Source of the DNA: Oligoflexia bacterium
GTDB taxonomy: Bacteria > Bdellovibrionota > UBA1018
NCBI GenBank assembly: GCA_963758495.1
Contig: CAVWVI010000003.1
Span: 832,001 to 896,000 of the forward strand
DNA: 64,000 nucleotides
Reading direction: 5' to 3'
Part shown: positions 13,872 through 15,560 of the stretch, piece after piece
Numbering within the stretch: the stretch's first letter is position 1
How the letters are laid out: each line of letters starts with the position of its first letter
The notes under the pieces: model-generated
What the model saw: the letters and a program-made list of their open reading frames with translations, nothing else
The model's database searches: none
What the model was told of the DNA's origin: nothing
Program-made: the position numbers and the translations under genes

Positions 13872-15479
13872 CTACCTGATTATATAACCTTCCCTTTCCA
13901 TGAGGTATAACCAAAATCTGTCTTTCACCCGAAAATTTGCTGAATGGTCACCCGCTGGGGCTTTCTCAAAGTACTCATTAGGCGCATCCATATCAGTGAA
14001 AAATTCTGTATAGGCATCAGCTAAAATGGGGTCGCTGAAGGCCATTTCTTGGATCAAGTGACTGGTCAACTTCTGCCCAACAGCAAGAGAATCATGAGAA
14101 TGAATGAGAGCCGTTCCAGCTTCATTGACCCGCGCACGTTCTCGAGACTCCTGTAGAAGTCTAACCATTTTATCGACATTGTATGACTCAAATTCGACAG
14201 TAGGATAATTTTGATAAGGCAACTGGACTCTTTCGCCAGCGAGAAACCGGCCCATCACTCTTCCAGGTTTTAATTCAGAAAGCGATGGTGCACCTAGATG
14301 AGGATAGGATATTTCCGCTTCGGTTCCTCTTAATCCCAAAGAATAGAGCATTCGCTGTCTCAAAACTTGAGGAGCCGTTGTTCTAAGTTCACCCTCGGGC
14401 CTTGGGTCTAACTCTGCGTGTCTATCAATAAATTTCATTTTATACTCTGTAAAGACTCGACTCATAAAATCCCCAGCACTGTCGGGATTACCTTCCTGGA
14501 AATGTTCTTTCTCCAGATCCGCAAGACCACTCTGAAAGCCGTCAAGACAACGATCCAAGTGGCTAGAGAGACGCAGGGCTAAATCACCTAGAGGAGTTGA
14601 CGTTTGTACCCCGTGCCCTCCCGCCTCTGTTTTGTCTCTCGCACTTTCAAATAATCTTTTGACTCTCTTACGGATAGATTGTTTAGTTTGGATCTTATTT
14701 TCATCATCATCTTCATCATCTTCATCCATCATCACGCCTCTAAAAATCACTTCCAAATCATTGGCAAGACTTCCTACCTCTGGATTGTTTTGAAGCGATC
14801 TGAGTATCTCTCCCCATTGAGCATCATCTATAGGTTCTGGATAGATGTGATGAATATCCTTGGAATGCCGATAGAAATAAGGATCTTTGGCTATGAAATC
14901 ATAATTCACACGATAGAACCCTGGTGTATAAGGACGTACTTTGACTTCATTGAGGACTGACTCAGCCATTTCGAAATCTTTCTTTAAATCAAATAGTTCT
15001 GATGAGATATAATGCCGATCTACTTTCTGTTGTAGACTCTGCTCTGCATCCTGATAGTGAGTCATGACTTCGGGATTCCTAGGTACAGCGATATTTAAAT
15101 AGGCGTAATGAGACTGAGGAATCGTCGGTGCTTGCGGAGGCGTATCTTCATTCACTGATCCATATTGTGCTTGCTGCTGTAGTATAGTGGCATGCTGACG
15201 CAACAATGCCCAACTCCTACGTACTGTTGTCGGTACCTCAATCGGAGAAGGTGATCTCAGGAGAGACGGTAAGGGCTCAAGAAATGAAGGCCGCTCATCC
15301 CCTTGTGATTCCAGTAACGAGTATGCTGGAGGCAGACGCCGATACAAAGTTACAGGAGGAGCAGGTAATTCTTCATCAAAATCAGGCAATACCACTACTA
15401 ATTGCTGTGGCGTCTCTTCTGGAAAACCCCATGCCATAGCAGACGCAGGAATCCACGAGAGGAGGAACAATTTTATCAT
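13872..15479 (-). CDS. Secreted protein with putative NEL-like (IpaH/SspH-type) E3 ubiquitin ligase domain
   Basis: Signal peptide MIKLFLLSWIPASAMA|W; CLD motif and YSLGL-x5-EISY segment resemble NEL (by eye); ORF could extend to 15524. Confidence 0.45.
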   Translation of the reverse strand: MIKLFLLSWIPASAMAWGFPEETPQQLVVVLPDFDEELPAPPVTLYRRLPPAYSLLESQGDERPSFLEPLPSLLRSPSPIEVPTTVRRSWALLRQHATILQQQAQYGSVNEDTPPQAPTIPQSHYAYLNIAVPRNPEVMTHYQDAEQSLQQKVDRHYISSELFDLKKDFEMAESVLNEVKVRPYTPGFYRVNYDFIAKDPYFYRHSKDIHHIYPEPIDDAQWGEILRSLQNNPEVGSLANDLEVIFRGVMMDEDDEDDDENKIQTKQSIRKRVKRLFESARDKTEAGGHGVQTSTPLGDLALRLSSHLDRCLDGFQSGLADLEKEHFQEGNPDSAGDFMSRVFTEYKMKFIDRHAELDPRPEGELRTTAPQVLRQRMLYSLGLRGTEAEISYPHLGAPSLSELKPGRVMGRFLAGERVQLPYQNYPTVEFESYNVDKMVRLLQESRERARVNEAGTALIHSHDSLAVGQKLTSHLIQEMAFSDPILADAYTEFFTDMDAPNEYFEKAPAGDHSANFRVKDRFWLYLMEREGYIIR

Positions 15480-15532
15480 TAAACTTTTTGTTAAACTTTT
15501 TGTTAAATCTTTATCCGATCCCATCCATAGCC

Positions 15533-15560
15533 TATTCGGAATATATGCCCTATAATTAAA
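15533..15560 (-). promoter_or_regulatory. FliA/sigma28-like promoter upstream of the NEL-like gene
   Basis: TTTAA-N15-TCCGAATA, same spacing as the other three copies. Confidence 0.4.

Follow-up and report, generated by a model that had tools for sequence, protein, structure and literature searches.

The conserved C-terminal domain of a 550-residue protein encoded inside a bacterial Tad cluster is predicted, from a structural model and from alignment, to be a distant and divergent relative of the NEL E3 ubiquitin ligases, though not a member of Pfam PF14496. The most likely reading, which we favour with modest conviction, is that the protein is exported by Sec, passes an outer-membrane step and then performs NEL-type chemistry in a eukaryotic cell. 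The gene itself is likely to be a recent, lineage-specific insert or passenger in the Tad cluster.

The gene and its product

The window, meaning the whole 64,000-nucleotide stretch of DNA analysed, comes from a genome of 3.66 Mb that is 92% complete (G000). The ORF at 13872-15524 on the minus strand is real, and lies where the original prediction had placed it, between flp (13502-13759) and a PP2C gene (15578-16333) on the same strand. Upstream are tadC, three FHA proteins and the PP2C-like gene, whose Pfam SpoIIE match (E 0.0024) fell under the cut-off; downstream are flp pilins, an A24 peptidase, TadE, CpaB, a secretin, an ATPase and TadB. The features discussed below are as follows, all on the minus strand.

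15578-16333, minus strand: PP2C-like phosphatase gene (Pfam), upstream flank, end of an FHA-FHA-FHA-PP2C block
15533-15560, minus strand: predicted FliA-like promoter site, TTTA-N16-TCCGAATA, 9 bp before the first ATG of the 550-residue ORF
13872-15524, minus strand: 550-residue ORF, P0002, true start likely Met16 at 15479
15432-15479, minus strand: predicted Sec signal peptide, Met16-Ala31 (from hydropathy and visual inspection; family homologues have similar N-termini)
15078-15431, minus strand: Pro-rich N-terminal region, residues 32-149, absent from the rest of the family and likely disordered
13875-15077, minus strand: conserved, mostly helical C-terminal domain, residues 150-550 (alignment and model)
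13878-14840, minus strand: part superposing on NEL domains, residues ~229-549 (structure search)
14538-14552, minus strand: R325-C326-L-D328-G329 motif, predicted catalytic C-x-D (family conservation)
14388-14390, minus strand: Glu379, predicted counterpart of the NEL second catalytic acid, Asp397 of IpaH9.8 (conservation and spacing)
14304-14339, minus strand: L396-G-L398 ... Y407 segment, in register with NEL L-x-L ... M-R-F (profile alignment and spacing)
13781-13810, minus strand: sigma70-like site (11/12) between the 550-residue gene and flp1 (pattern match)
13717-13744, minus strand: FliA-like site upstream of flp1 (pattern match)
13502-13759, minus strand: flp1 pilin gene (Pfam), downstream flank, first of an flp-A24 peptidase-tadE-cpaB-secretin-ATPase-tadB block

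The hydrophobic stretch after Met16 is likely to be a Sec-type signal peptide, as called from hydropathy and by eye. It is followed by 118 residues that include 19 prolines (residues 32-149), and the C-terminal motifs quoted in the original prediction are present, with HLDRCLDG containing Cys326, the sole cysteine of the protein. GC (0.44) and GC3 (0.36) of the gene are like those of its neighbours, and there is therefore no compositional sign of recent transfer. No paralogue was found in its own genome.

An uncatalogued family with a conserved cysteine

A profile built from eight domains and searched against 1.84 billion representatives recovered 148 proteins at E<=0.001, counted as clusters at 50% identity and including the query; they form a family that shares the C-terminal ~400 residues. 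The protein, likely secreted and described at first as an orphan, is thus not an orphan. The family is uncatalogued, with no Pfam or NCBIfam model, and the 550-residue protein itself had no Pfam, NCBIfam, PHROGs or PDB sequence match. The ESM Atlas held no usable match for it, and dynamin and fungal clusters scoring 0.86-0.92 there for the homologue P0007 were taken as noise; single-protein locus scans gave no match in genome or viral contigs. An organism label was attached to 3 of 30 family proteins looked up, all three being Bdellovibrionia or Oligoflexia, and all seven homologue loci from a further locus search were from Bdellovibrionota. On the strength of these labels the source of the window is assigned to Bdellovibrionota.

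Conservation was counted in a 150-row alignment, with the rows that have a residue in a given column as denominator. The conservation of the cysteine in homologues, which had been proposed as a check, is clear: Cys326 is present in 126 of 131 rows, flanked by Arg325 (110/124), Asp328 (123/131) and Gly329 (126/131). Glu379 is near-invariant (129/135), and Asp214 (112/121), Pro215 (114/120) and Gly430 (140/142) are also strongly conserved. The domain ends within 30 residues of the C-terminus in 65 of the 87 full-length members that cover its end.

What precedes the domain is variable. Among 112 homologues scanned with Pfam, 83 carried no Pfam module and the partner modules were Sel1 (16), TIG (6), ankyrin (4) and LRR (1, P0063); HEAT repeats occur in two further, close homologues, and none of the 112 matched NEL (PF14496). 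A weak OTU match (E 7e-4, under the cut-off) was seen in one of the 112. Two metagenome proteins of 1,450 residues, P0118 and P0103, have an OTU-like region joined to the family domain, the former with a weak Pfam OTU match and a cysteine motif visible by eye, making a deubiquitinase-ligase fusion possible. By crude counts over 105 full-length members, 58 have a strongly hydrophobic N-terminal stretch (hydropathy) and 18, several of them in a sister clade, have a lipobox-like N-terminus (regular expression).

Comparison with NEL ubiquitin ligases

We take PDB entries 3cvr, 3ckd, 4puf, 9h6w and 5kh1, together with Pfam PF14496, to represent the NEL E3 ligases (IpaH, SspH1/2, SlrP and NopM). A model of residues 150-550 built from 108 sequences had a pLDDT of 95.6 and a pTM of 0.92, and was used in a blind structure search over 48,161 representative PDB chains, of which the best 50 matches were listed. 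Four NEL ligases were retrieved within the top 17: SlrP at rank 2 (Z 6.4, rmsd 5.9, 208 aligned residues), SspH1 at rank 5 (Z 6.0, rmsd 6.2, 218), IpaH1880 at rank 12 (Z 5.3, rmsd 7.9, 216) and the IpaH C-terminal domain at rank 17 (Z 5.0, rmsd 5.8, 197). Among the matches listed they alone aligned over ~200 residues, the remaining rows aligning over 120 or fewer. In a second structure look IpaH3 was at rank 1 (Z 6.4, rmsd 5.8, 215 aligned). The aligned spans run from 79 to 401 of the model, against 470-762 of SlrP, 416-694 of SspH1 and 285/291/300 to 561/565/572 of the IpaH structures.

These scores are modest. Every NEL match has Z <8 (5.0-6.4) at an rmsd of 5.8-7.9, under the noise level of the aligner, whose own warning is that Z <13 is common for helical bundles, and the neighbouring rows in the ranking are designed helical repeats and CAMP factor; each NEL score taken alone is therefore within noise. 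Foldseek against the PDB gave nothing at E<=0.001 for the model, with NEL not among the matches listed. The structural check proposed in the original prediction thus came out in part, with NEL entries as the only listed whole-domain matches but at scores below noise and with nothing from Foldseek. Evidence for a predicted NEL-like fold consists, despite these scores, in the repeated retrieval of one family over the whole domain.

The sequence register is consistent with such a fold. The NEL reference was a shallow profile of 11 aligned natural NEL domains, in which C-x-D-R and an Asp lying 60 residues further along are among the invariant positions. In unconstrained hhalign the top alignment paired C-x-D with C-E-D at a probability of 0.2-0.5%, Glu379 with the D-E-I-E cluster of the NEL profile, and L-G-L and Tyr407 with L-x-L and M-R-F (Tyr407 opposite F); one run placed an out-of-register alignment first and the C-x-D-register alignment second. 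Trimmed cores, chosen post hoc once the register had been seen, beat 40 of 40 block-shuffled NEL profiles both locally and globally (15.6 against a shuffle maximum of 14.9, and 12.9 against 9.2), at a probability of 0.6-1.4%. Spacing is nearly identical: from acid to second Leu it is 19 in 120 of 120 family members versus 18 in 11 of 11 NELs, and from acid to aromatic 28 in 105 of 108 versus 27-28 in the 11 NELs, while Cys to Glu379 is mostly 49-68 residues versus 60-70 for Cys to Asp. The CXD cysteine of IpaH9.8 together with Asp339 and Asp397 is named as catalytic in the available text of PMC9320238. From spacing rather than coordinates, we infer that Glu379 is the equivalent of the NEL second acid. 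The motif order and spacing claimed by eye were hence reproduced for C-x-D, L-x-L and the aromatic residue, but the Glu of the expected 'EMRF' is not conserved.

Direct sequence searches stayed silent. PF14496 did not match the 550-residue protein at E<=10, against E 1.3e-77 for an IpaH7.8 control; neither the protein nor two profiles retrieved a NEL from PDB sequences, where Sel1 chains alone scored; and IpaH7.8 did not match an eight-row family profile. PF14496 was not found in 301 genomes of the phylum searched, where control genomes gave no match either, and Pfam listed no DUF1548 match at E<=10, on the assumption that its library includes that model.

The proteins thus share with NEL E3 ligases a C-terminal helical domain of matching predicted topology over ~200 residues, a C-x-D motif with a conserved acid ~50-70 residues on, L-x-L and an aromatic residue at near-identical spacing, and variable N-terminal modules. 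They differ in having 7-12% structural identity to NEL structures and no PF14496 match; in reading R-C-x-D-G in place of S/T-C-E/Q-D-R, so that the NEL Arg after the C-x-D Asp is Gly; in an extra ~80-residue N-terminal part and a beta-hairpin insertion; and in Sec- or lipoprotein-type signals in place of type III secretion. An N-terminal LRR is typical of NEL ligases, if not universal, and the 550-residue protein has its Pro-rich region instead. Other bacterial ligase classes, HECT-like (SopA/NleL) and SNL (SidC), combine a Cys-dependent C- or N-terminal catalytic domain with substrate-binding repeats, according to the portion of PMC13720258 available. The family is like them in its Cys-dependent domain, as predicted, and its repeats, but HECT-like and SidC folds are absent among the fold matches listed.

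Two alternatives bear on this comparison. The first is that the fold is unrelated to NEL, a coincidence of helical bundles in which C-x-D-G has another role, for example in metal or ligand binding. The NEL Z scores are level with those of designed helical repeats and CAMP factor, Foldseek, Pfam and HMMER add no support and hhalign probabilities stay below 2%; yet five NEL entries, and no others listed, align ~200 residues over the whole domain, the alignment register and the motif spacing, neither of which depends on the model, also agree, and an earlier low-confidence model from six sequences (pLDDT 41.6), for which the structure search was uninformative, retrieved no NEL. We regard such a coincidence as very improbable. 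The second, to which we attach some weight while thinking it rather unlikely, keeps an NEL-like fold with a reactive cysteine and assigns it other chemistry, namely discharge of E2~ubiquitin, or acyl transfer or cross-linking of a non-ubiquitin substrate at the surface. Gly in place of Arg in the motif, the extra N-terminal part with conserved Asn207 and Asp214-Pro215, which NEL structures leave unmatched, and the loosely fitting C-terminal lobe (rmsd ~6) speak for it, as do the TIG domains (6/112) and the lipobox-like N-termini, which would suit an enzyme at the surface more than one that is injected. Against it are conserved counterparts of both NEL catalytic acids, partner modules of the Sel1, ankyrin, LRR, HEAT and, once and weakly, OTU type, and plentiful RING genes in genomes that carry the domain. 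NEL-type ligase chemistry, with a thioester on Cys326 and catalytic acids at Asp328 and Glu379, is the reading that we infer; the original designation of a NEL-type E3 ligase retains the conserved cysteine, the predicted fold matches and the register, but finds no PF14496 match, LRR or type III signal.

The top viral fold match of the model was an uncharacterised Terrestrivirus protein, A0A3G4ZQ12, in BFVD (E 0.019, prob 0.96, 402 columns), which at TM 0.30/0.34 and rmsd 14.4 we treat as a lead only.

Position in the Tad cluster

PP2C orthologues were found in 58 of 61 genomes of the taxonomic family, and the downstream side of PP2C was surveyed in 44 relatives, a genome fetched twice being counted once. 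In 32 of them flp1 follows within 280 bp and the slot is empty; among them are G074 and G044, which a two-gene tree places closest to G000. Four others have a wider gap of 0.5-1.3 kb, occupied in two by an ORF that is unrelated and predicted to encode a secreted protein; in another four the cluster breaks apart at this junction, and in the last four the contig ends there. This operon boundary tolerates both insertions and breaks. None of the 44 relatives has an NEL-like domain in the slot.

The domain occurs in 8 of 75 genomes of the taxonomic family and in none of 343 genomes searched elsewhere in the phylum. In the other seven carriers it lies at unrelated loci, never in the PP2C-flp slot; one has a tandem pair between pseudouridine-synthase-like and murF-like genes (names by eye). 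No Tad genes were seen in 12 loci around homologues, most with flanks of 1.5 kb. We therefore rejected the idea that the gene is a conserved part of the Tad locus, since 32 of 44 relatives have an empty slot and none of seven other carriers has the domain there; the Tad position of the gene is probably incidental. The original prediction had seen a link between a candidate effector and the predation machine, and had asked whether the slot varies among relatives; with the slot so often empty and homologues at unrelated loci, synteny lends that link no support.

Several other arrangements were observed. The two ORFs between PP2C and flp1 are one of 355 residues with no Pfam match (L059:1083-2150, genome G058) and one of 156 residues (L041, genome G006). 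In G056, itself a carrier, a gene with signal peptide, F-box and LRR directly follows the PP2C orthologue (L040:173-1738, contig C166), and flp is on another contig behind a different gene. Two Tad clusters, L046 (G067) and L053 (G023), lack an A24 peptidase match between the flp genes. In the window, the Tad ATPase (6725-8893) is fused to an N-terminal MinD/ParA-like domain, and an RHS-repeat/DUF6531 protein (4110-5819) lies directly downstream of tadB.

The gene has, as had been pointed out, a FliA-like motif of its own (15533-15560), but the pattern, taken from the general FliA consensus, exceeds chance by a small margin only: the genome has 102 sites versus 78 and 88 in shuffles, with sites upstream of 33 of 2,936 genes versus 8-24 in five shuffles. 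A -10 box lies 61-102 bp ahead of the flp1 core in 11 of 36 relatives, and fliA is present in G000. Co-expression of the 550-residue gene with flp is plausible from these sequence patterns, and expression would then be driven by FliA in the motile phase. The full motif precedes none of 14 RING and none of 14 ankyrin genes of the genome, and a FliA regulon shared with those genes was rejected on this ground.

The cluster shares with the Kil/Tad-like systems of Myxococcus and Bdellovibrio, as far as these are set out in the available portions of PMC8460266 and PMC5430801, its flp pilins, A24 peptidase, TadE, CpaB, secretin, ATPase, TadB/C, several FHA proteins and the FliA-like site before flp1. 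In the same portions, such systems are described with bacterial prey and without ubiquitin-system cargo. The 550-residue gene is not a conserved part of a Kil/Tad-like cluster. A dedicated-cargo role, in which the protein is an E3 ligase encoded beside this machine, regulated together with it and delivered through it on contact into eukaryotic prey or host, would account for FliA-like sites ahead of both the gene and flp1, for FliA control of the Tad operon in Bdellovibrio (stated in the accessible part of PMC5430801), for a genome with a single, likely flagellar FHIPEP and no T6SS VipB, and for the F-box-LRR gene after PP2C in G056. Set against these are flp directly after PP2C in most relatives, a domain that in no other carrier sits in the slot, homologue loci free of Tad genes, a junction that is a plain breakpoint in four genomes and RING and ankyrin genes without the full motif. 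We hold dedicated cargo to be decidedly unlikely, and prefer Sec export of a recently arrived passenger.

Genomic context, export and possible targets

G000 is rich in eukaryote-type genes. Its 15 RING matches are the highest count of 75 genomes in the taxonomic family, only nine of which have any, and pattern scans picked up 14 ORFs with RING and 14 with ankyrin motifs, almost all of which seem by eye to begin with a signal peptide. RING genes occur in five of eight domain carriers versus four of 67 non-carriers; the carriers fall into about three lineages, so the p-value of this co-occurrence is inflated and we read it as a shared trend, not a statistic. In the window, two convergent, eukaryote-type RING-finger genes (24848-25576, plus strand, and 25587-27302, minus strand), one with ankyrin repeats and both with signal-peptide-like starts, lie 9-12 kb from the 550-residue gene. 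The gene at 43948-44949 has a signal-peptide-like start, an F-box-like stretch by eye that Pfam did not match as F-box, and a C-terminal FGE-sulfatase-like domain.

Unlike NEL ligases, which are type III effectors, the 550-residue protein has the putative signal peptide of a Sec substrate. The one FHIPEP gene in the genome (92% complete) is 2 kb from fliA and thus likely flagellar; T6SS VipB was not found in G000, which has four secretins, and no carrier has a TLC nucleotide transporter. No E2 or ubiquitin match was found in G000, where controls gave no match either, and a eukaryotic, probably protist, target is inferred because the genome shows neither of its own. In the proposed mechanism the protein would be exported by Sec and then pass through the outer membrane; Cys326 would take over ubiquitin from a eukaryotic E2 and hand it to host proteins, with Asp328 and Glu379 assisting the transfer.

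If the ligase activity is real, the 148 clusters would form a second, sequence-invisible branch of NEL-type ligases, the class would come to include Sec-exported proteins as well as type III effectors of proteobacteria, and the family would offer a natural variant for the study of NEL catalysis. Taken with the many RING, ankyrin and F-box genes of the carrier genomes, it would point to uncultured Bdellovibrionota lineages as likely attackers or inhabitants of eukaryotic cells, and raise the question of the route by which signal-peptide proteins enter the eukaryotic cytosol. This suggests that some relatives of the bacteria-eating Bdellovibrio act on eukaryotic cells. A bolder version, which we think unlikely, is that within one family of Bdellovibrionota eukaryotic cells have replaced bacterial prey in several lineages, which would deliver Sec-exported ubiquitin-system effectors (NEL-like ligase, RING, F-box-LRR and ankyrin proteins) through a Kil/Tad-like machine, without a type III or VI injectisome. 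The literature open to our search, from which subscription journals are mostly absent, gave no description of the family or of ubiquitin ligases in Bdellovibrionota; the terms 'DUF1548' and 'NEL-like' were each absent from the papers listed in one full-text search, and a term search of the accessible text of PMC11656739 did not find 'ubiquitin'.

Elsewhere in the window are a tandem pair of lambda Bor-like lipoprotein genes (23910-24652) and, at 48902-52165, a small HTH gene followed by two genes of ~415 residues that are HipA-like by eye.
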